From: Candidatus Omnitrophota bacterium | GTDB taxonomy: Bacteria > Omnitrophota > Gorgyraeia > Gygaellales > Profunditerraquicolaceae | DNA length: 64,000 bases | Assembly (NCBI GenBank): GCA_003598025.1 | Contig: QZKH01000006.1 | Location: 172,035 to 236,034 of the forward strand | Direction of reading: 5' to 3' | Part shown: positions 1 through 58,171 of the stretch, one piece after another | Position numbering within the stretch: position 1 is the stretch's first letter | How the letters are laid out: the number at the start of each line of letters is the position of its first letter | Made by a program: the position numbers and the translations under genes | The notes under the pieces: model-generated | The model's input: the letters and a program-made list of their open reading frames with translations, nothing else | Told to the model about the DNA's origin: nothing | Database searches by the model: none

Positions 1-881
1 TCAAAATTGATTTTGCTGAGGTCATTAAGGCAGGCAAGGCACCCAAGCCCGTAATCATTACGCTCGTAGTGAACTGGTGTATAAAGCCATTTACCATGTT
101 TGCAATCGCATGGCTGTTCCTGGGATTATTGTTCAAAGGTTGGCTTCCGGGCATGGAAACTGTAAAAGGGGGCGCACAGGTAGAATTGTTTAGGTCCTAT
201 ATAGCTGGTTGTATTTTGCTCGGTATAGCGCCTTGTACGGCTATGGTTTTAATCTGGGGGCATCTGGCTAAAGGAAACGATGGGCATACTTTGGTGATGG
301 TTGCTGTTAATTCGCTGACTATGTTGTTTCTTTATGCTCCTTTGGGCGGATGGTTACTGGGTGTGAACAAAATGCCTATACCATGGCAGACAATAGTATT
401 ATCAGTGGTAATCTATGTCGGCTTGCCTTTATTGCTGGGTTATTATTCAAGAAAATGGTTAATTGCAAGGAGGGGATTTAAATGGTTTGAGGAGAGATTC
501 CTGCATTATTTGACTCCCGTATCAATATGCGCGCTGCTCCTTACGCTTATTTTGCTTTTTTCATTTAAAGGCGAATTGATTATCAACCAGCCGCAGATTA
601 TTATTTTGATTGCGATCCCGCTTTTTATCCAGACTTGCCTTATTTTCGGCATAACATACGCTATTGCAAGGTGGCTGAAATTATCTTATAGAGATGCAGC
701 CCCTTCTGCGCTTGTGGGTGCAAGCAACCATTTTGAAGTTGCTATTGCGACTTCCACGGTACTCTTCGGCTTATCTTCAGGGGCATCTTTGGCGACTGTA
801 GTCGGGGTTTTAATCGAAGTCCCGGTCATGCTTATGCTGGTAAAGATATGCCTGCGCACAAGGCATTTATTCGGTAAATGA
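1..881 (+). CDS. ACR3/BASS-superfamily transporter (arsenite efflux / bile-acid:Na+ symporter-like), 5'-truncated by window edge
   Basis: The reading frame is open from base 3 with no upstream stop, so the listed GTG at 69 is internal. About 10 predicted TM helices; G/L/P-rich helices resemble ACR3. Partial gene. Confidence 0.45.
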
Positions 882-952: not shown

Positions 953-2302
953 ATGATTAAGATAGCCTTCGTTTACTTTTATTACCCTTATGTGTTGAAT
1001 TGTCCTCCTTATGGCATTTTGAGCCTAGCCGCATACATGAAAGAAAAATTCCAGGACAAAATAGAAATCAAATTGTTTGATGTGCTTCCAGGGGCAGATA
1101 TCAGGCAAGCCATAGAAGCATTTTCTCCGGATCTGATAGGCATATCCAGTTTCACTTTTTCTATCTCAAGGGCTTACGAATTAGCAGATTATTTTATGAC
1201 TAAGCGGGGAATTAAAGTGATATTAGGCGGCCTGCATGCAAGCCTGTATCCTCAGGAGAGCTTAAGGCACGCAGATTACGTGGTTAGAGGAGAAGGGGAG
1301 CGTGGTTTAGTAGAATTATTCTCCGGCATTATGAAAGACAATAGTTATCACCCTAGGATTATAAACTCGGAACCTATTGCAGATTTGGATACTTTACCTT
1401 CTTTACCGTGGGGTTTGGTTGACAAAATATTTTATACTACTACTAGCGACCATGCATTAAAGAATTTGGGTATAAAAAAAGGCTGTAAGCACGTAGAATT
1501 AATGACTTCGCGATGGTGCAATTACAAGTGTGCTTACTGTTATAATAGCGGTTTTGAACACGGGGCAAGGTATTTTTCCGCCGAGAGAGTGATAGCTGAT
1601 ATCAGATACCTTTTGGAAGAATGGCAGGTAGATTATATTGGTTTTGTTGATGATGATTTTCTCTCCAGCCAACCCAGGTTATCCAGCATCTGCGGCTTAA
1701 TAAAGAAGCACAAGCTTAAATTCCAATGGTTTTGCCACGCGCATGTCAATTCGGTCAATCCCGATACATTGAGAATGATTAAGGACTCCGGTTGTGATTT
1801 TGTTGCTTATGGATTTGAGAGCGGTTCTCCTAAAATACTGAATTTCTTGAAAGGCAAAAGTGTAAGCGTAGTGAAAAATGCCAAGGCAGCAAAGATGACA
1901 AATAAGGCAGGTTTAAGAGTATTTGGTTATATCATGATGGGAACGCCTACTGAAACAATAATTGATTTGTTTAGAACAATACTATTTGTTCTCTTTAACC
2001 ATATAGATATAGTAGCTACCAATAAAACCACAGCTTATCCGGGAAGTGAATTATGGAAATATTGCATAGATAACCGGATATTTAATTGGGAAAATGATAA
2101 ATTTGAGAAACCATTTCAGTATATTTATCTTAACAGAAAATATATCCCGGCCGTTTTCTTTGAATTCATATGGTTTATCTATATAAAAGCACTACTACCG
2201 GTTAAGCAGCTATGCCAAAAGGCCGATTCCAACATAAGGATACTTGTTTTAAATAGCCGGGATTTTTTTAGAAAAGCATGTAGATTATTTCTTGGTATTT
2301 GA
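953..2302 (+). CDS. B12-binding domain radical SAM protein (class B)
   Basis: N-terminal cobalamin-binding-like segment (KVILGGLHASLYPQE...VVRGEGE). Canonical CX3CX2C (WCNYKCAYC) radical SAM cluster. Length 449 aa. Confidence 0.8.
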   Translation: MIKIAFVYFYYPYVLNCPPYGILSLAAYMKEKFQDKIEIKLFDVLPGADIRQAIEAFSPDLIGISSFTFSISRAYELADYFMTKRGIKVILGGLHASLYPQESLRHADYVVRGEGERGLVELFSGIMKDNSYHPRIINSEPIADLDTLPSLPWGLVDKIFYTTTSDHALKNLGIKKGCKHVELMTSRWCNYKCAYCYNSGFEHGARYFSAERVIADIRYLLEEWQVDYIGFVDDDFLSSQPRLSSICGLIKKHKLKFQWFCHAHVNSVNPDTLRMIKDSGCDFVAYGFESGSPKILNFLKGKSVSVVKNAKAAKMTNKAGLRVFGYIMMGTPTETIIDLFRTILFVLFNHIDIVATNKTTAYPGSELWKYCIDNRIFNWENDKFEKPFQYIYLNRKYIPAVFFEFIWFIYIKALLPVKQLCQKADSNIRILVLNSRDFFRKACRLFLGI

Positions 2303-2314
2303 TATAATTGTAAC

Positions 2315-2986
2315 ATGTATATTTTTTCAAAAGACAACAGCGTTTATTTATTCAGGATATTCCTTTTTTGTTTAGCCGGGTTGATTTTAATATCCGGTTG
2401 CTATTCGGCATCCACCTTGAAGAAAAACATACCTAAGGGTAAGGGCTTGATTATTTCTCCTGCCGAAGGCAATATAACTAAGATAATCAGGAATATAAAA
2501 ATAAATAAATCTTCCCACATAGAGCTGCATCACCTGGATAAGAATTGTTCTTTTGACGAGTTAGCCCCATATGCCAAAGACGGATCAAGCCTTGTAATAA
2601 TCTCAATGAAGCTTTACCATAAACATATTACACTCAGCCCTATAGCTGGGAAAGTTAGCAGGATATTTTATGTCCCGGGCGGATTCAGGAACGTGTTCTC
2701 GAAGGGTTCGTATGAAGAAAACGAGCACAATAGTATTATTATAGACGGCGATGTGGATTTAGCGGTGATCCAGATCGCCGGACTCATGGCAAGAAAAATA
2801 GTCTGTGGTGTCTTAGAGGGGCAGGAAATAAGCGCCGGCGATAAGCTTGGTCATATTAAGCTTGGGTCTGCGGTTGCGCTTTTTCTTCCTCCGGAATGCA
2901 AGATAGTTGTAAAGGAGGGCCAGAAAGTAGATGCTGCCAAAGATATTATTGCCCAATACCCCGTTATTGTTAATGATAATAAATAA
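2315..2986 (+). CDS. phosphatidylserine decarboxylase-related proenzyme (small archaeal/Asd-like type)
   Basis: N-terminal TM helix. C-terminal KLGSAV motif matches the LGS(T) self-cleavage/pyruvoyl site of PSD family. Size ~220 aa fits the short PSD-related family. Confidence 0.5.
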   Translation: MYIFSKDNSVYLFRIFLFCLAGLILISGCYSASTLKKNIPKGKGLIISPAEGNITKIIRNIKINKSSHIELHHLDKNCSFDELAPYAKDGSSLVIISMKLYHKHITLSPIAGKVSRIFYVPGGFRNVFSKGSYEENEHNSIIIDGDVDLAVIQIAGLMARKIVCGVLEGQEISAGDKLGHIKLGSAVALFLPPECKIVVKEGQKVDAAKDIIAQYPVIVNDNK

Positions 2987-3004
2987 TTTGCGGATCAGGA
3001 TTTA

Positions 3005-4327
3005 ATGAGAAAGAAAGCCGCATTTTTTCTTATTTTAGCGGTAATATTCCTATCGCGTTTTATCCTGGTAATAGCCGGCCAGGATTTAATGGGCGATGAC
3101 GGCTTTCAGTATTTAACACGCGCAGAAAATTATTTAAAATACGGGATTCTTTCTCCTGACCGCGCAGATTCTTTCCGTAACCAATTCATAGACTCTCCGT
3201 TATACCCAATACTGCTTTCATGTTTCTTAAGAGTACTTAACAGCAAAATTGCAGCTGTCAGGTCTATATGCATGCTTAATTCCGTTTTTTTTATATTAGC
3301 AGCTTGCGCCGTATTCTTCCTGGCATATCGGCTTAGTAAAAAATACCTGGTAGCGCTGTTTTCTCTGGCAGTATTTGGCATGATGCCGGAAGGATTTGTA
3401 TATTCAATCCTTAATATGCCTGATAGTATGTTTCTGGCATTTTTTATATGGTCGAATTATTTTTTTGTCAGTTATTTTGGTTGTAACAGATGGAGGCGTT
3501 TAGCTTTAGCTTCATTCTTGCTTGGTATGAGCGTATTAATCAAGCCTATATCGCTTTTATTTATTTTAGTTTATGTTGTGTTGATAATTTCTTTTGATAA
3601 GAATGATTTCAGGCGCAGGGTAAAAATTGCAGTTTTATGCATTCTTGTGCAGATGTTTACCTTGTCACCCTGGTTAATAAGGAATTATCATGTATATAAA
3701 GAGATTTTCTTCAGCACGAAAAAAGACATCCATCTCTATTATTATGATTACCGTTTTATACTGGAAGATATCTATGGCAAGGAAGCAGCCGGCAGTATGA
3801 TAGAACAAAAAGCTAGGGAGATCTTCTCAAATATCGATGTAAATTCCAGGGATTCTGTTAAAGCTATACATGTTTTGGGTGGCTTTGCCAAAAAGGAGAT
3901 ATTCAGTAATTTCAGTTCCTACGCAACTCTCCTTATTAAAAGGCATCCGCGCCTTTATTTTGGCACAGGCACCGTTCAATTGCTGACTTTAACCGGAGAC
4001 GCAAGCGGCGCTCAGGCTTTGTATGAGTTTGGAAGGCAGCCGGCGCTAAGCATGCTTCGAAGACTTCCGGTGTATGTTATGACTTTGCAGCTTTTTTCAT
4101 GGATACTGCTCTTTTTAATTTATTTGTTATCGATTGCAGGATTAATGCGCATTATAGTTAAAAGAAAATGGGAAACACTTGTCCTTTTATCATTAAGCTT
4201 TTTATATTTTGTCATACTTGTCGGTCCGGCAACTCACACACGGTATAGGTTTGATTTCTCTTATTTGTTCGCTATATTATGCGGGTTTGTATTATATGAA
4301 ATAAAATCTTCTTCCGAAAATATATGA
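3005..4327 (+). CDS. GT-C fold membrane glycosyltransferase (GT39/ArnT/PMT-like)
   Basis: 440 aa polytopic membrane protein. N-terminal TM followed by a loop with acidic DDG..Y motif typical of polyprenyl-phosphate-sugar dependent GT-C enzymes. Confidence 0.45.
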   Translation: MRKKAAFFLILAVIFLSRFILVIAGQDLMGDDGFQYLTRAENYLKYGILSPDRADSFRNQFIDSPLYPILLSCFLRVLNSKIAAVRSICMLNSVFFILAACAVFFLAYRLSKKYLVALFSLAVFGMMPEGFVYSILNMPDSMFLAFFIWSNYFFVSYFGCNRWRRLALASFLLGMSVLIKPISLLFILVYVVLIISFDKNDFRRRVKIAVLCILVQMFTLSPWLIRNYHVYKEIFFSTKKDIHLYYYDYRFILEDIYGKEAAGSMIEQKAREIFSNIDVNSRDSVKAIHVLGGFAKKEIFSNFSSYATLLIKRHPRLYFGTGTVQLLTLTGDASGAQALYEFGRQPALSMLRRLPVYVMTLQLFSWILLFLIYLLSIAGLMRIIVKRKWETLVLLSLSFLYFVILVGPATHTRYRFDFSYLFAILCGFVLYEIKSSSENI

Positions 4328-5736
4328 ACCTAATTTTAGTAAACCCATATTCACATTCGATATCCGGAGTAAACAAGGCGACTATTGAGCCTCCGGTTGG
4401 CCTGGCTTATATCGCGGCGTTATTGGAATCAAGAGGATACAATTGCCAGATTATTGATGCGCAGATTATGGGTTTATCTTCGCATGAGCTTTTACGCGAA
4501 ATAAGAATACAGCCTGATTTAATCGGGATATCATCAAGCATAGTTACTTATCCTGCCGCACTCGATACAGCCAAAGTATTAAAAGAGGCATTTAAAGGCA
4601 CTCCAGTTATTTTCGGAGGCCCGCACCCTTCGTCGATACCTGAGAAAGCCCTGCAGAATGATTGTGTGGATGCTGTTGCTGTCGGAGAGGCTGAAGCCAC
4701 TATGCTGGAAATCGCCCGGCGATTTAAGGACGGGGAGCATTTATTCTCCGGAATAGAAGGGGTAATATATAAAAATAATGGTGAAGTTGTTACAAACAGC
4801 CCTAGGAAACTTATCGAAGATTTAGATGCATTGCCTTTTCCGGCGTACCATCTTTTACCCGGATTTAAATTGTATAAAAGCAGGGCAAGAAAATCCCCGG
4901 TTGCTCCGCTATTGACTAACAGGGGATGCCCTTACCAGTGTACTTTTTGTAATAAGGATATATTTCAGAGGCGTATCCGTTCAAGGAGCCCGGAAAACGT
5001 TATCAAAGAGATTGACTGGTTGGTAAATAAATTCTCAGTAAAGCAGATAGATATTTTGGATGACAACTTTAATTTTGATTTGAACCATGCAAAGCAGATT
5101 CTAGACTTGATCATTGATAGGGATTATAGCTTGGCTATAAATATGCAAAATGGAATACGGGCAGATAATGTTGATCCCCAGCTTCTTGATAAAATGAAAA
5201 AAGCCGGGGTTTTTAAGATAGGCTTCGGCATTGAAACCGCAGACCCGCAGGTACAAAGAAAAATAAAGAAGGTACTTGACTTGGATAAGATAATAGGCAT
5301 AACCAGGCAGGCGCAGGAAAAGGGTATTATTGTTTATGCAAATTTTATCATCGGCCTGGTCGGGGATAGCCAGGAATCAATGCAGAGGACTATTGATTAT
5401 GCCGTGAGGCTCTCTCCTGATATCGCAAATTTTATGATAGCTTTGCCTTTACCCGGGACCGAGCTTTATAAAGAGATAGAAGAGAAAGGGAAGTTCCTGG
5501 TCAATGTAGATGGCGGTGTTGAAAAGGGATTCTATGGCAATCAGGTATTTTATGAAATAGGTTCATTAAACAAAGATATGGTGTTAAAATATTACCGTAA
5601 GGCATACCGGGATTTTTATATAAGGCCTGGACGTTGGGCCCGGTTAATAAGAAGCATACGTTCGGTTAATGAATTGATATGGTTTAAAGACGCGATATTT
5701 GATCTTATAAAGAATATGCTAATCAGAAACAGGTGA
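4324..5736 (+). CDS. B12-binding domain radical SAM protein (class B)
   Basis: Cobalamin-binding-like N-terminus (VIFGGPHPS...AVAVGEAE). CX3CX2C (RGCPYQCTFC). Start overlaps upstream stop by 4 nt (ATGA). Confidence 0.8.
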   Translation: MNLILVNPYSHSISGVNKATIEPPVGLAYIAALLESRGYNCQIIDAQIMGLSSHELLREIRIQPDLIGISSSIVTYPAALDTAKVLKEAFKGTPVIFGGPHPSSIPEKALQNDCVDAVAVGEAEATMLEIARRFKDGEHLFSGIEGVIYKNNGEVVTNSPRKLIEDLDALPFPAYHLLPGFKLYKSRARKSPVAPLLTNRGCPYQCTFCNKDIFQRRIRSRSPENVIKEIDWLVNKFSVKQIDILDDNFNFDLNHAKQILDLIIDRDYSLAINMQNGIRADNVDPQLLDKMKKAGVFKIGFGIETADPQVQRKIKKVLDLDKIIGITRQAQEKGIIVYANFIIGLVGDSQESMQRTIDYAVRLSPDIANFMIALPLPGTELYKEIEEKGKFLVNVDGGVEKGFYGNQVFYEIGSLNKDMVLKYYRKAYRDFYIRPGRWARLIRSIRSVNELIWFKDAIFDLIKNMLIRNR

Positions 5737-5742
5737 TTTGCT

Positions 5743-6471
5743 ATGAAAACAGTAAGCGTATTGATACCGGCAAAGAATGAATCAGAGACAATAGCCCCGC
5801 TTATCGGACAGATAAAAAATACATTCGCAGGGATAGATAAATATAACCTTGAGATTGTGGTTATCGCCGATCACTGCAACGACCAAACCGGTCGGATTGC
5901 GTTAGAAAACGGCGCCGTTGTATATCAGAATATCTATAAGCCGGGCAAAGGTAACTCCTTAAGGTTCGGTTTTGGGGTTTGTAAGGGTGATATTATAGTT
6001 ATGCTTGATGCCGATGGTTCGCATCAGCCGCAGGATATCCCGCACTTTATCGAGGCCATAGAAAAAGGTTCCGGGCTTGCAATAGGCTCAAGGGCAAAGG
6101 GCGGAAGCGATGAATACGAGATTATTAGGCTATTCGGGAATGCTGTTTTTACATTCCTTGTTGACATATTATTCTCTCTGGATCTTACAGATTCATTGAA
6201 TGGTTATAAAGCGTTCAGGCAGGACATAATAAATAGCCATAAGTTTAATTCCAGATGGTTTGATATTGAAATAGAGTTAATTTTTGCTGCGTTAATAAAA
6301 GGTTACAGGATAACAGAGGTATCAAGCCATGAGCTGGCTCGGCAGGGCGGCAGGATGAAATCAAGCACCTTTCTTGACGGCTTAAGGTTTTTATTTGCAA
6401 TATTCAAATGGGGGTTTAAATACAGGGTTATTAAAATATTAAGCATTCGCAAAAAGGATAGTGACAGATGA
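5743..6471 (+). CDS. GT2 glycosyltransferase, dolichyl/polyprenyl-phosphate sugar synthase-like (Dpm1/ArnC-like)
   Basis: N-terminal VLIPAKNE...IVVIADHCND and central MLDADGS (DxD) motifs characteristic of GT2 polyprenyl-phosphate glycosyltransferases. Confidence 0.75.
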   Translation: MKTVSVLIPAKNESETIAPLIGQIKNTFAGIDKYNLEIVVIADHCNDQTGRIALENGAVVYQNIYKPGKGNSLRFGFGVCKGDIIVMLDADGSHQPQDIPHFIEAIEKGSGLAIGSRAKGGSDEYEIIRLFGNAVFTFLVDILFSLDLTDSLNGYKAFRQDIINSHKFNSRWFDIEIELIFAALIKGYRITEVSSHELARQGGRMKSSTFLDGLRFLFAIFKWGFKYRVIKILSIRKKDSDR

Positions 6472-8363
6472 CCGCAAGCATAAACTATAACGAATTTTGG
6501 GTAAGCCTTTTTGATACAATGGATGATATTATTTTTATTGTTGATAAGGAATGTAATATAAAAAAGGCAAATAGCGCCTTTTTGCTGGCTATGAACAGTG
6601 AGGAAAAGAACTTTATTGATAAGAAATGCTATGATGTTCTTGGCAGTTGCTGTTGCGGTGTTAACTCTTGCCCGCATAAGGAGACCGTAAATGCGGCTAA
6701 GCTTACGACATCCGAATATTATGATGACAGGCTTAATAAGTGGTTTCACTTACGCAGCGCTCCGTTATTTGACAAGAATAATGCTGTATGCGGCTCTATA
6801 TGCGTGCTGATCGATATTACTGAGCATAAGGCTAAAGACGAGGAATTAGAGGAATTAAGCCAGGCTGTCGAGTTAAGCCCGACTTGTGTTATGATTACTG
6901 ATGCCGATGCCAATATTGAGTATGTTAATAAAAAATTCCTTCAGTTAACAGGATACGCCCTTGAGGAGGTTATTGGCAAAAACCCGCGAATATTAAATTC
7001 AGGAGAGCAAGATAAGGAATTCTACAAAAAGCTATGGGATACCATACTCTCCGGTGAAGAATGGAGAGGCCAGTTCCATAACCGGAAAAAAAACGGGCAA
7101 TTATACTGGGAGTCTGCCTTAATTTCATCAGTCAAGAATAAAGACGGTAAGATTATTCATTTCATAGCCGTAAAAGAAGATATTACCGAACGTAAAAAGA
7201 TGGAGGAAAGCCTGCTTGCTGCAAATGAAAGGTTAAAGGAGTTAGACAAGTTGAAGTCAGAATTTGTCGCTACTGTCTCTCATGAGTTAAGGACGCCTTT
7301 GTCAATTATGAAGGAGGGGGTTTCATTAGTTATAGATAAGGTTACAGGGCCTTTGAACGGGCGGCAGGAAAAAACCCTGGAAACAGTTTTTTCTAATATA
7401 GACCGGTTGACTCAGCTCATCAATGATTTATTGGATATATCAAGGATAGAGTCCGGTAAACTTCGCCTAAAGAAGAGTTTTATAAATGTTTCTGCACTTT
7501 TAGATGATACATGTTCTAAAATGAGGATACAGAGTGACTCTAAGCACCAGCAGCTACTTTGCTATATCCCGGATAAACCTGAATATCTGTTTGTTGACCA
7601 GGATAAATTTATACAGATCCTTACGAACATAATCTCAAATGCTGTCAAATATACCCCTGAAAACGGGATTATAACAGTAAGCTTGCAGGGTAAGGATGAA
7701 TCCGTTGAGTTTAGAGTGATTGATAACGGTTCGGGTATATCCCGTGAGGACCTGCCGAAGTTATTCGGAAAATTCGCGCAATTCGGGCGCAGCCCCGGTG
7801 CCGGGCCTAAAGGCACAGGTTTAGGCCTTGCAATAACCAAAGAGCTTGTTAATATGCATAAGGGCAGTATTTGGGTGGAGAGTGATTTGGGTAAAGGGAG
7901 TAAATTCGTCATTTCTTTGCCAAGAATTGAATGTATCGATATTTTTAAGGAGTCTGCAGGCAAGCTTATTGATGATGCCTTAAAAGAAGACAAGCCGATT
8001 ACTTTTATCTTATTGCAAATAGACAATTCTAACGAAATTATCAGTAAATATGGTTTCGCAGAATTTAACCTGGTATTGAGGAATATCGAAAGCGAAATAA
8101 ATAAAGCCTTAAGAGGCAAGGAAGATGTTGTGCAGGTTGGTAAGAATGAAATTATTATTTCGTTATTCGGCGTTGGTAAAGATACTTCCGGGATTGTTTA
8201 TGGCAGGATTGAAAACATTATAAGAGAGTATATTTTAAAATCAGGCTTACAATCAGCAAAGGAGCTTAAGACAAAAGCCGTCTTTATAAGCTATCCCGAG
8301 GAAACTAAGAACATAGAGGAGCTGTTAGCAAAGGTAAGTTGTTCTTCAGTTAAGAATGAATAG
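6468..8363 (+). CDS. PAS-domain sensor histidine kinase with C-terminal GGDEF-like (degenerate) domain
   Basis: Two PAS-like blocks. HisKA H-box ATVSHELRTPL. HATPase_c G-boxes (GTGLGLAITKELV, GKGSKF). An extra ~170 aa C-terminus resembles an inactive diguanylate-cyclase fold. Cys-rich GSCCCGVNSCPHKE near the N-terminus. Confidence 0.8.
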   Translation: MTASINYNEFWVSLFDTMDDIIFIVDKECNIKKANSAFLLAMNSEEKNFIDKKCYDVLGSCCCGVNSCPHKETVNAAKLTTSEYYDDRLNKWFHLRSAPLFDKNNAVCGSICVLIDITEHKAKDEELEELSQAVELSPTCVMITDADANIEYVNKKFLQLTGYALEEVIGKNPRILNSGEQDKEFYKKLWDTILSGEEWRGQFHNRKKNGQLYWESALISSVKNKDGKIIHFIAVKEDITERKKMEESLLAANERLKELDKLKSEFVATVSHELRTPLSIMKEGVSLVIDKVTGPLNGRQEKTLETVFSNIDRLTQLINDLLDISRIESGKLRLKKSFINVSALLDDTCSKMRIQSDSKHQQLLCYIPDKPEYLFVDQDKFIQILTNIISNAVKYTPENGIITVSLQGKDESVEFRVIDNGSGISREDLPKLFGKFAQFGRSPGAGPKGTGLGLAITKELVNMHKGSIWVESDLGKGSKFVISLPRIECIDIFKESAGKLIDDALKEDKPITFILLQIDNSNEIISKYGFAEFNLVLRNIESEINKALRGKEDVVQVGKNEIIISLFGVGKDTSGIVYGRIENIIREYILKSGLQSAKELKTKAVFISYPEETKNIEELLAKVSCSSVKNE

Positions 8364-9151: not shown

Positions 9152-9586
9152 ATGCATAAGAGAGTTAATTTCTTGGTCTTAGTTCTTGCAGCAGCATTAT
9201 TATCCGCGGGTTGTGAAACTGCAGGACAGAATACAACAGGTGGGGCTGTAGGCGGAGGATTACTTGGGGCTGCAGTCGGAGGTATAGTCGGGCATCAAAG
9301 CGGCCATGGCCTGGAGGGCGCGGCAATAGGGGCGGCTACAGGAGCTGTTGCCGGAGGATTAATCGGCAACCAGATGGATAAGAAAGCTATGGCAGTCAAC
9401 CCAAACCATATCCCAATAACAAAGATCGCAGAAATGGCATCCCAGGGCTTGCCCGATGCCGTAATAATAGACGAGATACAGAGGACAAAGTCTAAGTATA
9501 ACCTTAATTCTGAGCTTATAACCTATTTAAAGCAGAATAAAGTAAGCGATAGGGTTATTGATTATATGTTGTCTACAGGGAAATAA
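9152..9586 (+). CDS. lipoprotein with glycine-zipper (2TM/Gly-zipper) region
   Basis: Lipobox LLSAGC. Extended GxxxG glycine-zipper stretch (GGAVGGGLLGAAVGGIVG...). Strong SD AAAGGAGGAGG upstream. Confidence 0.55.
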   Translation: MHKRVNFLVLVLAAALLSAGCETAGQNTTGGAVGGGLLGAAVGGIVGHQSGHGLEGAAIGAATGAVAGGLIGNQMDKKAMAVNPNHIPITKIAEMASQGLPDAVIIDEIQRTKSKYNLNSELITYLKQNKVSDRVIDYMLSTGK

Positions 9587-9653: not shown

Positions 9654-10052
9654 ATGCTACGAAAATTGATATTCTTAATAGGCCTTTGCTTCATTTTAAG
9701 CGGCTGCTGCAGCATCTTAAATAACAGGGTATGCTTATTAAAGAGATTTTCAGCTAACAGGTCAGGGATCGAGAGCCTGTTGAACAGGCAGGAAGACGGT
9801 TTTTACCGCCTTCGTGACGATATAAAGAATAACAAATTAAAAACAGGGTTAAGTAAAAATAAAATAATCTCAGAATATTATTCCCCGGTTTTTTCGTATT
9901 TAAGGGATAAAGACAAAAATATCACTAAAGTACTGGTATACAGGCATCCTACTGAATACTTTTCCTCGGAGTTAATATATCTTTTCTTTGACAGGCGCAA
10001 CAGGCTTACCGCATGGCAGCTATTCGAACCGCCAGACTTAAGCGTATTATAA
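9654..10052 (+). CDS. small lipoprotein, unknown function
   Basis: Signal peptide with lipobox ILSGCC. No recognisable domain. Confidence 0.4.
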   Translation: MLRKLIFLIGLCFILSGCCSILNNRVCLLKRFSANRSGIESLLNRQEDGFYRLRDDIKNNKLKTGLSKNKIISEYYSPVFSYLRDKDKNITKVLVYRHPTEYFSSELIYLFFDRRNRLTAWQLFEPPDLSVL

Positions 10053-36463: not shown

Positions 36464-37807
36464 ATGCCAAATCGTATCTTTCTTGCCTGTCTTTTCCTTC
36501 TTGTCATCTTTAGTTGTCTTACCTATGGCGGAGTAACACCTTTATATTCTATGATAATTAATGTGGCGGCCTTATCATTAAGCTGCTGCTGGTTGATTAC
36601 TGCCATTTCTAAAAAAGAGACCTATTTTGTCAAAACCGGTTTAGCCATTCCTGTTTCTTTATTCAGTTTGATTATCTTACTGCAGTTGACGCCTATCCCT
36701 GCCGGCGTGTTAAAAATCTTTTCATATAATATGTACAGAATATATATAATGGCTTTTCCGGAAGCAGGAGAAGGATTATTATTACCCCTGAGCGTTAATC
36801 CGGATTCAACTATCCAAGAATTATTGAATTATGTTGTCCTCATTGTACTTTTTTTTATGACTATCAACATTGTGGATACCAAAAAAGAATTCAACTTTTT
36901 ATTCAATGGGATAATATTTTTCGGGCTTGCAATAAGCATCTTTGGGATAATCCAGAAATATTCTTATTCGTATAAAGTATATTGGTTTGATTCCCCGCAA
37001 ACTGCCACTTCCCCTTTTGGGCCGTTTGTTTACCGCAATAATTTTGCCGGCTATATTAATATGATAATCCCTTTGGCTATCGGTTATTTCTTCCTGGATA
37101 TGCCTTTATCAAAAAGGCTAATTTATGGCTTTTGTATCGGAATAATGGCGTTGGCATTATTCTTGACTTTCTCAAGGGCTGGGATCGCGGTATTTCTTAT
37201 TTGTATTTTGCTTTTATTGGCATTAGCACGGTTTAAAATAAAAACAGATGTAAAAATATTTAATCTTGTCAGTGCCATATTATTAGCCTTAATATCCGTA
37301 TTGTTCTTATTTTTTGTCGATTATAAGGCTCTTTTTATGAGAATAACAACTATATTCAGTGACCAGGCTTTTATTATTTTCGGGCACGGTTATTCTTGGA
37401 AAGATATTGTAAAGATCTGGGCTGATTTTCCTGTTTTCGGTACCGGTTTGGGTACTTTTGGCAGCATATCTTCAATGTATAAGACTACTTTCTCGCAGAA
37501 ATTATTTACTTATGCACACAATGATTTTCTACAGTTGCTATCGGAAGTGGGGATCGTCGGTTGTGCGTTAATCATTATTTTTTTCTTAAAGTATTTTTTG
37601 ACGGTAATAAAACTGTGGTTGAGCAGGCGGGACCCTTTTGTCATATATATTGTGATGGGCGGAATGGTTTCTGTTGCCGGGGTTTTGGTTTATTCATTGT
37701 TAGATTTTAATTTGCATATACCGGCAAATTCCGTACTTTTTTCCGTTTTATTGGGCTTAGTATACCGGCTGACAATTTCAAAATTTCATAATGAGTACAG
37801 CAAATAG
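36464..37807 (+). CDS. O-antigen ligase/Wzy-like polymerase family membrane protein
   Basis: About 10-12 TM with a large loop. Position directly after wzc. Confidence 0.55.
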   Translation: MPNRIFLACLFLLVIFSCLTYGGVTPLYSMIINVAALSLSCCWLITAISKKETYFVKTGLAIPVSLFSLIILLQLTPIPAGVLKIFSYNMYRIYIMAFPEAGEGLLLPLSVNPDSTIQELLNYVVLIVLFFMTINIVDTKKEFNFLFNGIIFFGLAISIFGIIQKYSYSYKVYWFDSPQTATSPFGPFVYRNNFAGYINMIIPLAIGYFFLDMPLSKRLIYGFCIGIMALALFLTFSRAGIAVFLICILLLLALARFKIKTDVKIFNLVSAILLALISVLFLFFVDYKALFMRITTIFSDQAFIIFGHGYSWKDIVKIWADFPVFGTGLGTFGSISSMYKTTFSQKLFTYAHNDFLQLLSEVGIVGCALIIIFFLKYFLTVIKLWLSRRDPFVIYIVMGGMVSVAGVLVYSLLDFNLHIPANSVLFSVLLGLVYRLTISKFHNEYSK

Positions 37808-38501
37808 CGAACATATTTTTGTGTTTAAGGCAGATAAATATCGGAAATATATAATTATTGCCCTGATAGTATTGCTTTTTTTGTTATTTGGCTCTCTCAG
37901 TATATCCAGATATATAGCTGCAGAAAGTTTTATGAAAGCAGAGGAGCTATTTAATAATGCCCAGGCAATAAGCGAAGATATTTTATTAGAAAAATCGTTT
38001 GCGTATCAAAAAACTATTAGATTATTAAATCGGGCAATTTCTCATAACAAATACAATGCCGATTATTACAGTTTCCTTTCAAGTTTATTATATACGGTAG
38101 TTGATAATCAGTCTCTTGCCGAACTCATTATGATCAATAATAAGGATTACTTTAAATCTCATAAGATATTGGATGCTGCCGAGTGGTATCAGGCGGAAGC
38201 TATTTTAAGGAATCCTGCCAATTACCTGTATTATTATAAGCTTGCTGAATTGTATATTAAATCCGGAGATACTATTAAGGCCGAAGAACAGCTGAAGAAG
38301 TCTATTCTATTTGATCCGCAGAATATAAATTTGAATCTTTCGCTGGCAAAGTTTTATTTAGACAGGGGAGATAGCGAGGAGTTTAAGAAATACCTCAAAG
38401 TTGCAATGGGCTTAGACAGGCTTGAATCAAAAGGCAAAGTATCTGAGAAGATGAATAATTTCCTAATAGGTATTGGGCAGGAGGGGGCTGTTACCGAATG
38501 A
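37791..38501 (+). CDS. TPR-repeat membrane-anchored protein
   Basis: N-terminal TM, TPR-like repeats. Confidence 0.4.
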   Translation: MSTANSEHIFVFKADKYRKYIIIALIVLLFLLFGSLSISRYIAAESFMKAEELFNNAQAISEDILLEKSFAYQKTIRLLNRAISHNKYNADYYSFLSSLLYTVVDNQSLAELIMINNKDYFKSHKILDAAEWYQAEAILRNPANYLYYYKLAELYIKSGDTIKAEEQLKKSILFDPQNINLNLSLAKFYLDRGDSEEFKKYLKVAMGLDRLESKGKVSEKMNNFLIGIGQEGAVTE

Positions 38502-39601
38502 AGATATTGGTCGTTGGTGCCGGGCCCGTAGGGTCTTATGTTTCCAGGCTTTTGCAAAAGAAGGGCAAAAACCTGGATATTACTGTCATTGAAGAACATC
38601 CTGAAGTCGGCAAGCCGGTGCATTGCGCCGGGCTTGTAAGCACTAAAGTATTTAGCGAAATAAGCCTGCCGTCTTTAAGTAAGAATCTCGTGCTTAACAA
38701 GATAGATGGGGCGGATTTTCATTTTGAGAATGAATCCTTCAGGATAAGAAGAAAGAACGCGGCTTTTGTAATAAACCGGAAGGATTTTGATATTTCTCTG
38801 GCAGAAGGCTTAAACATTGATTTTAATACTAAATTTGTCGGCATAGAGAAGAACCATAAATTTTTCATTGTTGAAACCGACAAAAGGGAATATGAGGCAG
38901 ATATAGTCATAGGCGCAGACGGTGCTAATTCTTTAGTAAGAAAGGTATTAAACCCCTCAAATAGCATACAATGTTTGCGGGGAGTGCAGTTCAGGATAGA
39001 ATCCCGCCAGCATGAAAGCAATTTTGTGCAGGTTTATTTAACTGACGAATCTTTTGCTTGGGTGATACCTGAGAATTATGGCATCGTAAGGGTAGGGATA
39101 TTGTCCGATAATCCTTATAAAGACTTAACTGATTTTATTGAAAAGGTGGGGATAAAAGGAGCGATACTTGAAAAATTCGCCGGATTAGTACCGATAGGCT
39201 CATGCCTTACCCAAAACCAGGGCCTGGTTTTGGTTGGGGATGCTGCTTGCCAGGTAAAGCCTTTAACACATGGAGGTATTTATTACGGAATGCGATGTGC
39301 TGAAGTGCTTGCTGATTGTATAATAAATTCTAAGATTAATGAGTATGAAAAGAGATGGAAAGCCAAATTTGATAGGGAGATACAGATCGGCCTTAAAGCC
39401 AGGAAATTTTATCAAAACTTAAGCCGTGATAATAAGAAGAGAATATTCAAATTACTTAAAAATAACGTTAAAATCCTGGAGAAATTTGGTGATTTCGAGA
39501 ACCATTCCAGGGTAATTTCTGCACTAATAAAAAATCCATCTTTACAAAGTTTTTTCGGTAAAGTATTTATAAGTTTTTTAAGAAACAATTCTATTCCTTA
39601 A
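38498..39601 (+). CDS. geranylgeranyl reductase family FAD-dependent oxidoreductase
   Basis: MKILVVGAGPVGSYVSRLL FAD motif. GDAACQVKPLTHGGIYYGM signature as in ChlP / digeranylgeranylglycerophospholipid reductases. Confidence 0.7.
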   Translation: MKILVVGAGPVGSYVSRLLQKKGKNLDITVIEEHPEVGKPVHCAGLVSTKVFSEISLPSLSKNLVLNKIDGADFHFENESFRIRRKNAAFVINRKDFDISLAEGLNIDFNTKFVGIEKNHKFFIVETDKREYEADIVIGADGANSLVRKVLNPSNSIQCLRGVQFRIESRQHESNFVQVYLTDESFAWVIPENYGIVRVGILSDNPYKDLTDFIEKVGIKGAILEKFAGLVPIGSCLTQNQGLVLVGDAACQVKPLTHGGIYYGMRCAEVLADCIINSKINEYEKRWKAKFDREIQIGLKARKFYQNLSRDNKKRIFKLLKNNVKILEKFGDFENHSRVISALIKNPSLQSFFGKVFISFLRNNSIP

Positions 39602-39624
39602 TTTTTTTATAATCATTAAAAGCG

Positions 39625-40623
39625 ATGAAAATTTTTCTAATAGGCACTTTTATGCCATCCAGTATTGAATATTCCTACCTTAGGGCCTTCCTGCGCCTGG
39701 GCCATACCGTAAAATGTTTTGATACCACACACAAGAACCTTTTTATTAAGATAATCAAAAAAAAATTAGACAACCGAATAATTTTTTCGGAAATAAAAAA
39801 TTTTAATCCTGATTTAATATTTGTAATCAAGGGATATGAAGTATTGCCGGAGACAATTGATAAGATCAGGGATATTTCACGGGCCAGAATATTCTGCTTT
39901 AATAGCGATGATCCTTTTGAGATAACCATCAAGGGCACCAGCAACAGCAATATCCTTGATTCCATACCTTTTTATGATCATTATTTTACTTGGTCAAAAG
40001 TACTGTTAAATATCCTTAAGCAAAAAGGCGGCGCCAGGAACGTAGGGTATCTGCCTTTTGGTTTTGATTCATTTTTTCATTATCCGCAGACTTTATCTAA
40101 ACATGAAGCCGATAAATATTTCAGTGAAATAACCTTCGTCGGCAGCTGGGATGAGGAGAGGGAAAAATGGCTTAAAGAGTTAAGTAGTTTTAATTTAGGG
40201 ATATGGGGTAATTCGGATTGGTTGTTTAAATGTTCAGATAGATGGTTGAGGGGCAGATGGAAGAAAAAAGAAATGTTTGCTCAGGATATGTCAAAGGTCG
40301 TCGGTTCATCGCATGTATCGCTGAATATCTTGCGGTTGCAAAATAAGGGCAGTCATAATATGCGTACATTTGAGGCCCATGCAAGCCAGGCTTTTGTAAT
40401 CTCAGAGAGAAGCCCTGAAATCTGCGAATTATTCAAGGAGGATAGCGAAGCGGTATACTTTTCAGATCCCAAAGAAATGAAAGACAAGGTCGCATATTAT
40501 TTAAAAGCAGATTTTTTACGAAAAAAGATTGCCTTTTCAGGGTACAAAAGATGCCTGAAAAGCAGTTATTCATATCTGGATAGGGCAAAACAAGTATTGA
40601 AAACCTATGAAGAACTCAAATAA
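39625..40623 (+). CDS. hypothetical protein, CgeB/DUF3880-like putative glycosyltransferase
   Basis: Weak resemblance only (GT-B like C-terminal half). No definitive motif. Confidence 0.3.
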   Translation: MKIFLIGTFMPSSIEYSYLRAFLRLGHTVKCFDTTHKNLFIKIIKKKLDNRIIFSEIKNFNPDLIFVIKGYEVLPETIDKIRDISRARIFCFNSDDPFEITIKGTSNSNILDSIPFYDHYFTWSKVLLNILKQKGGARNVGYLPFGFDSFFHYPQTLSKHEADKYFSEITFVGSWDEEREKWLKELSSFNLGIWGNSDWLFKCSDRWLRGRWKKKEMFAQDMSKVVGSSHVSLNILRLQNKGSHNMRTFEAHASQAFVISERSPEICELFKEDSEAVYFSDPKEMKDKVAYYLKADFLRKKIAFSGYKRCLKSSYSYLDRAKQVLKTYEELK

Positions 40624-41839
40624 TAATGAAAGAAAATCACGGATATTAAGCGTCTATAATTTTCTGGAAGAGAGAAGGGGCGCGCAGGTCACTTTTATAA
40701 ATTCAGCTATTTTTCTTAGAAATCAAGGGCATAAAGTAGATGTTCTAGTGCTGTCAATTTCTAAAAGTTTTAAGGATGAATTGGAGAGCCAAGGGATAAG
40801 CGTCTTTGACCTTAGGTTTAAACCCGGATTATTAAAAGTGTTGTTTTTAAATATGTTGATTAAGTTGTGTGTCAACCCCGTAGTCTTTATCAAATACAGG
40901 AATTTTGTCAAGAAACATGAGAGATGTTATGATCTTGCTTTAGTGCAGCATTCATATTTTACTCCGCTTATTTTACCCTCTTTGACTATACCCAGCGTAT
41001 ATTTCTGCCACGAGCCTCCCCGGGCGTTTTATGAGCCAAACGTCATTAATTATAATTCCGGGTTGAGTAAAATTATTAATTTTTTTATTATCTTCATAGA
41101 GAAGATTATTGATAAATGGTGTGTCAAGTCAAGTAGTTTGATATTAGCAAATAGTGAATATACAAGAGAGTTTATTTACAGGGTATATGGGTTATTTGCT
41201 GAGACTTGTTATCTTGGAGTTAATATCAATCATTTTAAGCCTACCAGTATAAACAAAGAAACAATGGTTCTTTCTGTGGGGGCATTAGAAAGGACAAAGG
41301 CGCATGATTTTATTTTACGCAGCTTATCGACTATCCCCGTAAATAAAAGGCCGTCTTTAACTATCGCCGGAAGCGGCCCTTTCAGGGAGAGGCAAAGGCT
41401 TTCAGATATGGCAAAAAGGACAGGAGTCAAACTTAATATTTTATCAGTCGATTCTGAAGGGATGGTTAGCTTGTATAACCAGGCAAAAGCTACTTTGATA
41501 GCCGGAATTATGGAACCTTTCGGTCTGGCTGCAATAGAATCTATGGCCTGTCAGACCCCAGTTGTAGCCGTAAAAGAGGCAGGTTTAAGAGAAACAATAG
41601 ATGAAAGTTGCGGTATCTTTACTAATAGAGACGAGCATGAGTTTGGCCGGGCAGTTATAGATATCATTGAAAATCCTCAATTGGCAAACATACTCGGCAG
41701 TAATGGCAGGAAAAGGGTAATTGAACGTTTTACCTGGTACGAATTGGCAGAAAATTTTGAGAAAAAAATAGAAAGTATTCTATTTAAGCATTTTGATTAT
41801 AAAAGAAATACGGAACCCAATATTATGGCAACAGGCTAA
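40607..41839 (+). CDS. GT4-family glycosyltransferase (GT-B)
   Basis: EPFGLAAIESMACQTPVVAV E-x7-E motif region. Confidence 0.8.
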   Translation: MKNSNNNERKSRILSVYNFLEERRGAQVTFINSAIFLRNQGHKVDVLVLSISKSFKDELESQGISVFDLRFKPGLLKVLFLNMLIKLCVNPVVFIKYRNFVKKHERCYDLALVQHSYFTPLILPSLTIPSVYFCHEPPRAFYEPNVINYNSGLSKIINFFIIFIEKIIDKWCVKSSSLILANSEYTREFIYRVYGLFAETCYLGVNINHFKPTSINKETMVLSVGALERTKAHDFILRSLSTIPVNKRPSLTIAGSGPFRERQRLSDMAKRTGVKLNILSVDSEGMVSLYNQAKATLIAGIMEPFGLAAIESMACQTPVVAVKEAGLRETIDESCGIFTNRDEHEFGRAVIDIIENPQLANILGSNGRKRVIERFTWYELAENFEKKIESILFKHFDYKRNTEPNIMATG

Positions 41840-41859
41840 AAGATGCCTAGGGGCTAATA

Positions 41860-42927
41860 ATGGTCTGCGAAATGAATACAGGTTTCATAAAGAAGATCTT
41901 AATTTTTTCTCCGAACTGGTTAGGGGACGCCGTTATGTCTATGCCTATGATTTATGCCTTGCGGGAATCTTTACCTGGTTGCGATATAACCATAGTCTCA
42001 AGGCCTGGCTTAGTCCCTCTATGGCAGCAGAATGATTACTCAAAAGAGATCATCCCTTTTGACATATTTGATAAAACTACCGGGGTCAGAGACTATTTAA
42101 GGCTTTTTACGAAATTAAGGGGAAAATCATTTGATTTAGCTATAATTTTGCCTTCTTGCCTGCAATGGAGTTTAATCAGTTTATGCGCCGGTATCCGCTA
42201 TAGAATAGGGTTCAGCAATAATACTGGCAGTTTACTGCTATCAAATAAACTAGCTAATGATAGAGACAGAAAAATCCACATAATTGCTAATTACATGCGC
42301 ATTGCCAGGGCTATCGGCATTGAGGGTAAAGAATATATGCCGCAGTTGATGATAAGCGATAGATACGTAAATTTTGCAAATGATTTTTTCAAGACCAATA
42401 ATATCGATAAACAAGACATAGTAATCGGCCTGGCTCCAGCAGCCGCATATGGGCCTGCTAAGAGGTGGCCGGAAGAATATTTTGCTGATTTAGCGGACAG
42501 ATTGATAGATTCTTATAAGGCTAAGGTCATAATTTTCGGAAGCCAATTTGAATCAGACATTGGCTGCAAGGTTTCCGGATTAATGCGCAATGCACACGTT
42601 AATCTTGTTTCTAAGACCGATCTTATGGAAGCCGCCGGCTTGATAAATAAATGCAGCCTATTTATTACCAATGATTCTGGTTTGATGCATATTGCATCCG
42701 CATTAGGTGTCCGGCTTATTGCAATTTTCGGCTCGACATCTCCCTTATGGACAGGCCCATGTTTAAAAAAATCAGTAATATTAAAGAAGGATTTACCTTG
42801 TTCTCCATGTTTTAGCAGGACCTGCCATTTTGGTTCATACAAGTGCTTAACATCTATAACGGTTGAAGAGGCCTTTGAAGCGGCGATAGCCCAATTGAAA
42901 AATAATTCACCTGTAGGATTACAATGA
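41860..42927 (+). CDS. GT9-family glycosyltransferase (ADP-heptose:LPS heptosyltransferase-like)
   Basis: LAPAAAYGPAKRWPEEYF and NDSGLMHIASALGVRLIAIFGSTSP motifs of WaaC/WaaF family. Confidence 0.8.
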   Translation: MVCEMNTGFIKKILIFSPNWLGDAVMSMPMIYALRESLPGCDITIVSRPGLVPLWQQNDYSKEIIPFDIFDKTTGVRDYLRLFTKLRGKSFDLAIILPSCLQWSLISLCAGIRYRIGFSNNTGSLLLSNKLANDRDRKIHIIANYMRIARAIGIEGKEYMPQLMISDRYVNFANDFFKTNNIDKQDIVIGLAPAAAYGPAKRWPEEYFADLADRLIDSYKAKVIIFGSQFESDIGCKVSGLMRNAHVNLVSKTDLMEAAGLINKCSLFITNDSGLMHIASALGVRLIAIFGSTSPLWTGPCLKKSVILKKDLPCSPCFSRTCHFGSYKCLTSITVEEAFEAAIAQLKNNSPVGLQ

Positions 42928-45964: not shown

Positions 45965-45977
45965 GAGCGCAAAGATA

Positions 45978-47900: not shown

Positions 47901-47980
47901 TTAAAGAATAACCGGTATTTAAATAACATCCTTATGATTATCTGATATGCGCATAATCATTTTTATACAAGAGGCATAAT

Positions 47981-49042: not shown

Positions 49043-49077
49043 TTTAAGCAAATTTGAGCGATTAAGGGGTAAGAGTC

Positions 49078-50100: not shown

Positions 50101-50110
50101 GGGGGTTTCT

Positions 50111-54939: not shown

Positions 54940-54943
54940 AACA

Positions 54944-56161: not shown

Positions 56162-56171
56162 AGGAGTCAGC

Positions 56172-58168: not shown

Positions 58169-58171
58169 TCA

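Follow-up and report, generated by a model that had tools for sequence, protein, structure and literature searches.

A radical SAM protein paired with a Dpm1-like glycosyltransferase in an Omnitrophota genome: a possible module of extracytoplasmic glycosylation

The gene string and its spacing

This report concerns five consecutive genes at positions 953-6471 of a 64,000-nucleotide stretch, here called the window, from a Candidatus Omnitrophota bacterium (GenBank assembly GCA_003598025.1, contig QZKH01000006.1, positions 172,035 to 236,034 of the forward strand). The genes encode two radical S-adenosylmethionine (SAM) proteins with B12-binding-like domains (rSAM1 and rSAM2), a pyruvoyl proenzyme resembling phosphatidylserine decarboxylase (PSD), a membrane glycosyltransferase of the GT-C type and a family 2 glycosyltransferase (GT2) resembling dolichol-phosphate mannose synthase (Dpm1, DPMS). 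An earlier note, made from the DNA letters alone, had described five consecutive, partly overlapping genes with these labels, and in this it was right: its coordinates are exact, and Pfam, NCBIfam and PDB searches agree with the assignments (Table 1). The note had also taken all five genes to be one module with a bias towards lipid chemistry. We found that only rSAM2 and GT2 are a conserved, co-varying pair in other lineages, and that a GT-C protein often accompanies them.

On its 5' side the locus (L001) extends partly outside the window and carries genes for a GT2, a 157-amino-acid membrane protein, a NapH-like Fer4_5 protein, a third radical SAM protein (rSAM0, L001:4101-5426) and the complete ACR3-family protein. 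On the other side the gene string runs on past 6471, the start of a sensor kinase gene overlapping the GT2 stop by 4 nt. According to the listing of open reading frames (ORFs) the gaps within the five-gene string are 12, 18, -4 and 6 nt. Such tight co-directional packing is the default in the window, where 56 of 62 genes lie on the plus strand, 36 of the 51 gaps between genes on one strand measure 20 nt or less and the coding density is 94%, thus spacing alone is weak evidence for an operon or a shared function. For this reason functional linkage was judged by conservation in other genomes. Promoter and terminator scans of the cluster gave nothing better than shuffled sequences, and Rfam at E<=0.1 detected no riboswitch or other RNA element within it.

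Table 1. Features at the locus (window coordinates)
Feature	Position	Strand	Domains and remarks
ACR3-family arsenite efflux gene, 3' part	69-881	+	TIGR00832; complete copy at L001:5476-6558
rSAM1	953-2302	+	B12-binding-like domain and radical SAM core
PSD-like pyruvoyl proenzyme	2315-2986	+	PF02666
PMT_2/GT-C membrane glycosyltransferase	3005-4327	+	PMT_2, 440 amino acids
rSAM2	4324-5736	+	B12-binding domain and radical SAM core
Dpm1/DPMS-like GT2 without transmembrane helices	5743-6471	+	PF00535, 242 amino acids
PAS-HisKA-HATPase sensor kinase with C-terminal GGDEF-like domain	6468-8363	+	Pfam domains

Conservation of rSAM2, GT2 and GT-C in other genomes

The ten proteins of the extended cluster all served as queries against approximately 170 fetched loci that encode relatives. 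A GT2 was counted as a neighbour if its homologue lay within 5 kb of an rSAM2 homologue, and loci whose rSAM2 homologue was at least 40% identical to that of the window were called close. By these definitions a GT2 homologue adjoined rSAM2 in 10 of the 12 close loci, as compared with 30 of the 119 loci below 40% identity (Fisher p=1.2e-4). The identity of the GT2 rose with that of rSAM2 (Spearman rho 0.59, n=42, p=4e-5): GT2 homologues of 52% identity went with rSAM2 homologues of 59-60%, and those of 42-48% with rSAM2 homologues of 43-45%. The loci behind this linkage come from lineages that include Omnitrophota, Margulisiibacteriota, Brocadiales, a gammaproteobacterial MAG (metagenome-assembled genome), Elusimicrobia, Woesearchaeota and Thermoplasmatales. 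The partner GT2s found beside rSAM2 homologues are uniform, all being 224-243 amino acids long, free of transmembrane helices and provided with common motifs. A GT-C protein was present in half of the close loci (6/12) and in 16 of the 119 weaker ones (p=0.005), an enrichment to be read with the caution that the hidden Markov model used for its detection was seeded from the close set and is thus biased in favour of it. A second metagenome scan, done with an rSAM2 alignment, yielded mostly homologues below 40% identity; only two of the loci found (L094 and L095) were close.

The remaining genes of the cluster did not share this conservation. In the ~170 loci we found no homologues of the PSD-like protein, ACR3, the Fer4_5 protein or the 157-amino-acid protein, and no orthologues of rSAM1 or rSAM0 above 32% identity.

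A Pfam survey of 78 neighbouring ORFs in eight close loci gave Radical_SAM (17), B12-binding (12), Glycos_transf_2 (10), class-I methyltransferase (10) and PMT_2 (6) domains, plus epimerases/dehydratases of the SDR family; PMT_2 proteins were found in L012, L013, L016, L094 and L073. In a MAG of Brocadiales (L006) the order of genes is DegT aminotransferase, rSAM2 homologue, SDR and a 781-amino-acid protein in which GT2 and PMT_2 are fused, with GT4s, a methyltransferase and a Wzx-like flippase around them, a layout reminiscent of Arn systems. Several loci with no recognisable GT-C have, beside the pair, large polytopic membrane proteins that match nothing in Pfam. Taken as a whole, the homologous loci carry GT4s, class-I methyltransferases, SDR epimerases/dehydratases, DegT, Polysacc_synt, a Wzx-like flippase and polysaccharide deacetylase; they are clusters for glycans and not for lipid tails.

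rSAM2 belongs to a large clade outside the curated families

rSAM2, like rSAM1, combines an N-terminal B12-binding domain of the Rossmann type (PF02310, 4e-21 in rSAM2) with a radical SAM core (PF04055, 1e-21) and has the CX3CX2C motif CPYQCTFC at residue 202. It is 100% identical to a radical SAM protein record from Omnitrophota and to JGI contig Ga0394679_056418. The protein is a member of a large, uncharacterised clade: relatives of 43-60% identity form at least 120 protein clusters in bacteria and archaea, including Omnitrophota, Margulisiibacteriota, Brocadiales, Thermoplasmatales and others. We also observed tandem arrays of 4-7 paralogous radical SAM proteins with B12 domains, 30-37% identical to rSAM2 and mostly lacking a GT2, in Anaerolineae, Bathyarchaeota and uncultured bacteria (L012, L019, L043, L051, L068, L083 and others).

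The AF2 model of rSAM2 has a pLDDT of 91.4, and its nearest solved fold is AprD4, the paromamine 1,2-diol dehydratase (TM-scores 0.77/0.79, E 5.9e-26), followed by TsrM, MgmA, CysS, TokK and OxsB; TM-scores for the whole set including AprD4 are in the range 0.67-0.77. In a profile search of the PDB, MgmA/QCMT, AprD4, TokK, OxsB and CysS were matched at only 83-98 bits (QCMT being structure 9CCB, PMC12931638). The model thus indicates a class-B architecture, from which the reaction cannot be read: methylation, diol dehydration/deoxygenation and ring contraction would all be compatible with a fold of this kind. Cobalamin-dependent C-methylation is the commonest reaction of class-B radical SAM enzymes.

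The earlier note had likened the radical SAM proteins to lipid methylases and cyclases, a comparison that the searches did not support. With the NCBIfam models, rSAM1 and rSAM2 scored, respectively, 106.3 and 202.2 bits for HpnJ (TIGR03471, cut-off 577.6), 55 and 101 bits for HpnR (cut-off 650) and 95 and 106 bits for the ladderane-type family (TIGR04072, cut-off 360). The Tes model (cut-off 450) did not match rSAM1 and was not among the best 25 NCBIfam matches of rSAM2. Judged by these scores neither protein appears to reach any curated lipid clade, be it HpnJ, HpnR or the ladderane-type family. Models of BchE, the P-methyltransferase and ribosomally synthesised and post-translationally modified peptides (RiPPs) scored similarly to the lipid-clade models, and the AprD4 model gave 59-63 bits (cut-off 500), so the proteins do not fall into a characterised non-lipid clade either, and the outcome that the note had named as a refutation was therefore not seen. 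There are no hopanoid genes (hpn or shc) in the window or in L001, nor is the cluster flanked by isoprenoid or fatty-acid genes.

The two glycosyltransferases

The GT2 (PF00535, 2.5e-22) has as its best solved relative the dolichol-phosphate mannose synthase of P. furiosus (5mlz, E 3.6e-24). The match covers residues 3-231, spanning the catalytic domain and the interface helices, with the DADGSH of the GT2 aligned to the DADLQH of DPMS (DAD motif); the second solved relative is ArnC (E 3e-8). In NCBIfam the scores were 114.5 bits for AglJ (cut-off 325), 67.9 for the Dol-P-hexose transferase (375), 53.4 for PpgS (370) and 38 for ArnC (529), and there was no match to HpnI. On this evidence the GT2 is predicted to be a polyprenyl-phosphate sugar synthase that makes a glycosyl donor.

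The GT-C protein passes the gathering thresholds of PMT_2 (40.3 bits, threshold 26.1) and PMT (26.4 bits, threshold 22.7). It has at least seven strongly hydrophobic segments, no periplasmic domain, and a GDD motif (residues 30-32) in loop 1 after the first transmembrane helix, of which G30 and D31 are invariant in four homologues. It is nearly an orphan, its best relatives being 39% and 24% identical; the latter sits among genes for polysaccharide deacetylase, a GT4 and methyltransferases. The metagenome scan with GT-C alone returned no relatives and a word-indexed protein search only three homologues, consequently GT-C cannot serve as a tracer of the module. No match was obtained with its sequence profile in the PDB. 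The nine top fold matches of its AF2 model in the PDB are all GT-C proteins (AglB, STT3, Pmt and PglB among them), with a best E of 2.6e-3 and TM-scores of at most 0.51, and as the model is of low confidence (pLDDT 63.5), we drew no conclusion from it about subfamily or acceptor. The protein is predicted to be a periplasmic transferase that uses a polyprenyl-phosphate-linked sugar as donor. The proposal of the earlier note that a Dpm1-like GT2 and a GT-C enzyme form a donor/transfer pair is supported by the DPMS, ArnC and AglJ relatives of the GT2, by the recurrence of GT-C proteins beside rSAM2-GT2 pairs and by the fusion in L006.

Lineage-specific neighbours of the conserved unit

The PSD-like protein matches PF02666 with 113.6 bits (threshold 22, E 1.2e-32), and the catalytic H104, the self-cleavage site G184-S185 (LGS) and a QIAG..R.I motif are invariant across 19 homologues. 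NCBIfam models of PSD and ASD gave ~125 bits (cut-offs 183-230), and a PDB sequence search with the protein gave no match. It has in common with true PSD/ASD enzymes the domain, the catalytic His and the Gly-Ser pair at which self-cleavage generates the pyruvoyl group. Distant homologues (~35% identity) adjoin genes for a CDP-alcohol phosphatidyltransferase and CarS, as true archaetidylserine decarboxylases do. PSD usually has its catalytic domain at the cytoplasmic face and often a pssA partner; there is no pssA near the window gene, and a CDP-alcohol phosphatidyltransferase was found in none of six contexts of the PSD-like clade.

The N-terminus differs as well. The segment encoded by 2315-2395 is a predicted lipoprotein signal peptide with cleavage before Cys27 (LISG|C), and in the close clade (including homologues P0122-P0126 and P0171) a positively charged n-region and a hydrophobic core are followed by a lipobox (LISG|C, LAG|C, IAG|C or VYG|C), which is conserved in the close clade only. 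Canonical short PSD/ASD proteins are anchored N-out/C-in: they start with a hydrophobic helix that carries no charge, and the motif F-x-R-[DN]-P-x-R comes next. Because of the positive-inside rule and the lipobox consensus we predict that the clade consists of exported, lipid-anchored enzymes with a topology opposite to that of canonical PSD. That an enzyme of phospholipid head-groups can lie beyond the inner membrane is known from ClsO, an outer-membrane lipoprotein cardiolipin synthase (PMC12846801). The clade is tiny: of 3262 PSD-like matches among 1.84 billion cluster representatives (50% identity), only three belong to it at E<=1e-30.

The contexts of the clade members argue against a fixed association of the PSD-like protein with the other genes of the string. 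Its genes lie beside a TreT-like GT4 and nitroreductases (L008/L009), a CNNM protein (L010), an HD protein (L174) or a DUF975 protein (L175), in all cases without radical SAM and GT-C genes. The order rSAM1, PSD-like, GT-C is retained only on a 2.2-kb contig (L092) that is 78% identical in DNA sequence to window positions 2068-4222 (62% for rSAM1, 79% for the PSD-like protein and 75% for GT-C at the amino acid level); nowhere else did rSAM1, the PSD-like protein and this GT-C occur together. With four PSD-like relatives in unrelated contexts, the claim that all five genes make up one module is not supported. Most simply, the PSD-like protein would be a pyruvoyl decarboxylase that is exported throughout its clade and has a function of its own.

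rSAM1 (PF02310 7.8e-19, PF04055 7e-19; CX3CX2C motif CNYKCAYC at residue 189) and rSAM0 are paralogues, 49.5% identical over their full length, that flank ACR3. Each is only ~25% identical to rSAM2. The best solved relative of rSAM1 in the PDB sequence search was AprD4 (59 bits), and its C-terminal part contains hydrophobic segments. What part rSAM1 has in the module is uncertain. Together with rSAM0 and the PSD-like protein it stands outside the conserved unit as a neighbour peculiar to this lineage, although these proteins may add steps in this organism. The Fer4_5 protein, a NapH/MauN-like membrane ferredoxin encoded just 5' of rSAM0 (L001:3371-3853), could speculatively be imagined as a membrane-bound electron donor for the radical SAM proteins.

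The full ACR3 protein scores 408 bits with TIGR00832 (cut-off 283) and has both a Cys motif (PCTAMV) and a Glu motif (NHFEVAIA), which we take to be the transport motifs. Most likely it is an unrelated arsenite pump embedded in the co-directional string. We considered whether ACR3 could be the flippase of the module; this is unlikely, since the protein is well above the ACR3 equivalog cut-off and has kept the Cys and Glu motifs. An arsenic-related role of rSAM0 and rSAM1, suggested by the position of ACR3 between them and by matches to ArsL and P-methyltransferase models, was set aside, because the matches were only 47-97 bits as compared with cut-offs of 450-600, there are no ars regulator or reductase genes nearby and the fetched loci offered no orthologues for comparison. 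Further ars genes were not seen near rSAM0-ACR3-rSAM1.

Discussion

On the basis of domain identities, co-varying adjacency, a natural GT2-GT-C fusion and glycan-type neighbourhoods we propose that rSAM2, GT2 and GT-C are a unit of extracytoplasmic glycosylation of the Gtr/Arn type, in which a radical SAM enzyme tailors the donor sugar or its nucleotide precursor. In our estimate this proposal has about an even chance of being correct. In such a scheme the GT2, peripheral and without transmembrane helices, would use a nucleotide sugar to glycosylate polyprenyl phosphate on the cytoplasmic side of the membrane, a step that we infer from homology to DPMS, ArnC and AglJ. rSAM2, as its co-varying adjacency to the GT2 suggests, would modify an unactivated carbon of this sugar, which at that point would be bound to the lipid or, just before transfer, still be part of the nucleotide sugar. 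The alteration could be C-methylation, diol dehydration/deoxygenation as catalysed by AprD4 or ring contraction as in HpnJ or OxsB. A transporter would then flip the donor, and GT-C would hand over the modified sugar to a periplasmic acceptor, for example lipopolysaccharide (LPS), another glycan or a protein.

Each half of this scheme has a counterpart among known systems. Three-component systems (GtrA/GtrB/Gtr*, ArnC/ArnE-F/ArnT, PpgS/Rv3779 and ORF15/14/12 of Citrobacter youngae with ORF13) likewise consist of a polyprenyl-phosphate sugar synthase and an extracytoplasmic GT-C enzyme, and of the two proteins of the window one is DPMS/ArnC-like and the other PMT_2/ArnT-like, their homologues being fused in L006. 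There are differences: GtrB, ArnC and the P. furiosus DPMS have transmembrane helices and the window GT2 does not, the GT-C is minimal with its 440 amino acids, no GtrA, SMR or MATE gene is adjacent, and the accessory enzyme that is conserved here belongs to the class-B-type radical SAM proteins. Tailoring of the lipid-linked donor before transfer by GT-C is known from DprE1/E2 and from the ORF13 epimerase of three-component systems (PMC11127046), and remodelling of lipid-bound sugars by radical SAM enzymes from HpnJ and Cds (PMC13459092).

In the pathways of HpnI/HpnK/HpnJ (bacteriohopanetetrol cyclitol ether) and of the calditol synthase Cds a lipid is first glycosylated by a glycosyltransferase, and the lipid-bound sugar is then remodelled by a radical SAM enzyme, in the case of HpnJ one with a B12 domain (PMC13459092). 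HpnJ is the best-scoring curated model for rSAM2, yet at about a third of its cut-off; the window GT2 is not HpnI-like, the context is not that of hopanoids or archaeal lipids, and the recurrent GT-C implies that the sugar is passed on to another acceptor rather than kept as a lipid head-group. The radical SAM enzymes of aminoglycoside pathways, namely AprD4 and the C-methyltransferases GenK and GenD1, have a common domain architecture with rSAM2 and act at unactivated carbons of sugars. AprD3 is the reductase partner of AprD4, and the SDR that follows the rSAM2 homologue in L006 offers a parallel. On the other hand, the identity to AprD4 is only ~19%, the aminoglycoside substrates are soluble pseudo-oligosaccharides and not sugars on a carrier lipid, and no SDR is adjacent in the window. 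The logic of GT2 and GT-C is thus known, whereas a conserved class-B-type radical SAM partner of a Dpm1-like synthase without transmembrane helices was not found described. Our literature library, in which we found neither a module of B12-domain radical SAM protein, Dpm1-like GT2 and GT-C nor a lipoprotein PSD, was incomplete, so this is absence of evidence only.

It must be noted that several observations weigh against the proposed glycosylation unit. Among the Pfam and NCBIfam matches of the cluster and its flanks there is no GtrA, SMR or MATE flippase, the only transporter being ACR3. Every family assignment in the module falls below the NCBIfam equivalog cut-offs. The cluster is ~30 kb away from the LPS core/O-antigen genes of the window and contains no pointer to an acceptor. 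AprD4 has a B12-like domain but is not known to need B12, and the predicted B12-like domains of rSAM2 and rSAM1 are no proof of cobalamin use. As to conservation, 2 of the 12 close loci have no GT2 detectable by tblastn and half of them no detectable GT-C, the GT-C enrichment carries the seeding bias mentioned above, the window GT-C is too divergent to establish orthology with the GT-Cs of other loci, and the 12 close loci examined stand against at least 120 homologous clusters.

Three other explanations have to be weighed against this. If the locus were a membrane-lipid head-group pathway similar to HpnI/HpnJ or Cds, the GT2 would glycosylate a membrane lipid, the radical SAM proteins would convert or methylate the head-group or the lipid, and the PSD-like protein would make an ethanolamine head-group. 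It speaks for such a pathway that HpnJ is the top NCBIfam match of all three radical SAM proteins (106, 202 and 121 bits for rSAM1, rSAM2 and rSAM0, respectively), that HpnI (glycosyltransferase) with HpnJ (B12-domain radical SAM) and Cds are real precedents (PMC13459092), that a PSD-family gene lies within the string and that rSAM1 has hydrophobic segments at its C-terminus. We nevertheless consider it unlikely. The HpnJ scores are 3-5 fold under the required 578 bits and the BchE and P-methyltransferase models come nearly equal; the GT2 does not match HpnI and resembles polyprenyl-phosphate synthases; shc/hpn, isoprenoid and fatty-acid genes are not adjacent; and the module is conserved without the PSD-like gene, whose product is predicted to be exported. 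A further point is that GT-C has no role in the HpnIJ and Cds pathways, yet it recurs with the rSAM2-GT2 pair and is fused to GT2 in L006. Even less can be said for modification of a ribosomal peptide, with the radical SAM proteins as methyltransferases and the GT2 as its glycosyltransferase: rSAM2 scores 157 bits with ApyD and 121 bits with the RiPP C-methyltransferase subfamily, and the upstream GT2 weakly matches the SunS S-glycosyltransferase (42 bits), but none of these scores comes near its cut-off, and models of non-peptide families score at least as well. As positions 953-8363 contain no ORF of precursor size, no protease and no RiPP recognition element (the intergenic DNA totals less than 40 nt), and the conserved partners of rSAM2 are a Dpm1-like GT2 and a GT-C in glycan clusters, we regard this explanation as highly improbable.

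The last explanation is that all five genes together with rSAM0 serve one product, GT-C delivering a sugar or head-group that bears an alpha-amino acid, the PSD-like lipoprotein decarboxylating it in the periplasm and rSAM0 and rSAM1 adding radical modifications. The active site of GT-C and the predicted lipoprotein would indeed both face the periplasm, the order rSAM1, PSD-like, GT-C is kept in L092, and the genes are separated by gaps of 12-18 nt and a 4-nt overlap. L092 is, however, a close relative at 78% nucleotide identity, and common descent may be enough to explain the retained order; in four more remote members of the PSD-like clade the neighbours are unrelated; tight spacing is the default of this genome; and a bona fide ACR3 splits the rSAM0/rSAM1 pair. 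We know of no glycan or lipid substrate of such a kind. For these reasons a single product of all six genes seems doubtful to us, about to the same degree as the lipid head-group pathway.

The proposed glycosylation unit allows a wider hypothesis, which we put forward only tentatively, as it is in our view rather less probable than the unit itself. A class-B-type radical SAM clade widespread in bacteria, DPANN and other archaea may tailor polyprenyl-phosphate-linked sugars by C-methylation, deoxygenation or carbocycle formation before their transfer by GT-C, and in this Omnitrophota lineage the process may be coupled to an exported PSD-like lipoprotein. Gtr/Arn-type systems drive the diversity of surface antigens and polymyxin resistance, and the known accessory enzymes acting on their lipid-linked donors are deformylases and epimerases. 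If the hypothesis is true, radical chemistry joins three-component glycosylation, and a conserved radical SAM partner would bring unactivated carbons within the reach of donor tailoring. Novel, unusual surface sugars would then be expected in uncultivated lineages such as Omnitrophota, Brocadiales, Margulisiibacteriota, Elusimicrobia and DPANN archaea, groups with envelopes that have hardly been characterised. The three genes would be a concrete, expressible set for assigning a function to an orphan class-B radical SAM clade, of which there are many. The lipobox-containing PSD-like protein would, for its part, be the first member of the PSD family to work elsewhere than at the cytoplasmic face; such a clade would challenge the view that PSD decarboxylation takes place at the cytoplasmic face only, in parallel with the outer-membrane cardiolipin synthase.

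Neighbouring genes and other clusters of the window

The sensor kinase encoded downstream of GT2 is a possible regulator of the cluster; the link is by spacing alone, which at this locus is weak evidence, and no counterpart of the kinase was found beside rSAM2-GT2 pairs in the other loci. Further downstream two small predicted envelope proteins are encoded, one resembling glycine-zipper lipoproteins (9152-9586) and one of 132 amino acids that carries an LSGC lipobox and matches nothing in Pfam (9654-10052).

The earlier note had added a geranylgeranyl reductase at 38498 and a third B12-domain radical SAM protein at 59641, and had concluded that this genome invests heavily in unusual membrane lipid chemistry. 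Both genes are what they were said to be: the former scores 165.2 bits with TIGR02032 (cut-off 158.8) and the latter is a radical SAM protein with a B12 domain. The conclusion is weakly supported. In its favour, the radical SAM protein at 59641 belongs to a cluster resembling those of fatty acid synthases (FAS), which is unrelated to the five genes, whereas the gene at 38498 is inside an LPS core/O-antigen-type cluster.

The LPS-type cluster (36464-54175) comprises genes for a Wzy_C ligase-like protein, a TPR protein, the flavoprotein of the geranylgeranyl reductase family, which is an odd member of such a cluster, GT4s, three GT9 heptosyltransferases, GT2s, a GNAT protein and, at 52044, a radical SAM protein of the non-B12 type. 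The FAS-like cluster (54187-62674) contains a FabG-like SDR, a ketosynthase (KS), a FabZ-like protein, FabF, a flavoprotein similar to CrtI/carotenoid isomerase and the B12-domain radical SAM protein, followed by a polysaccharide deacetylase and a WecG/TagA glycosyltransferase. Its layout resembles that of ladderane-type clusters with FAS, desaturase and B12-domain radical SAM genes, the TIGR04072 score being only 87 bits (cut-off 360). The radical SAM protein of this cluster (59641-61104) has a CX4CX2C motif (CPYGRCSFC) in place of CX3CX2C.

Outside the window, on the minus strand of L001 (~736-1001, ~4.7-4.9 kb 5' of window position 1), we found a tRNA gene split by a group I intron. The intron matches RF00028 of Rfam at L001:782-975 with 73.5 bits (gathering threshold 50, E 3e-17), and ARAGORN, run with introns allowed, placed an intron of 191 nt at position 35 of the tRNA, for which the anticodon assignment Thr-UGU is uncertain.

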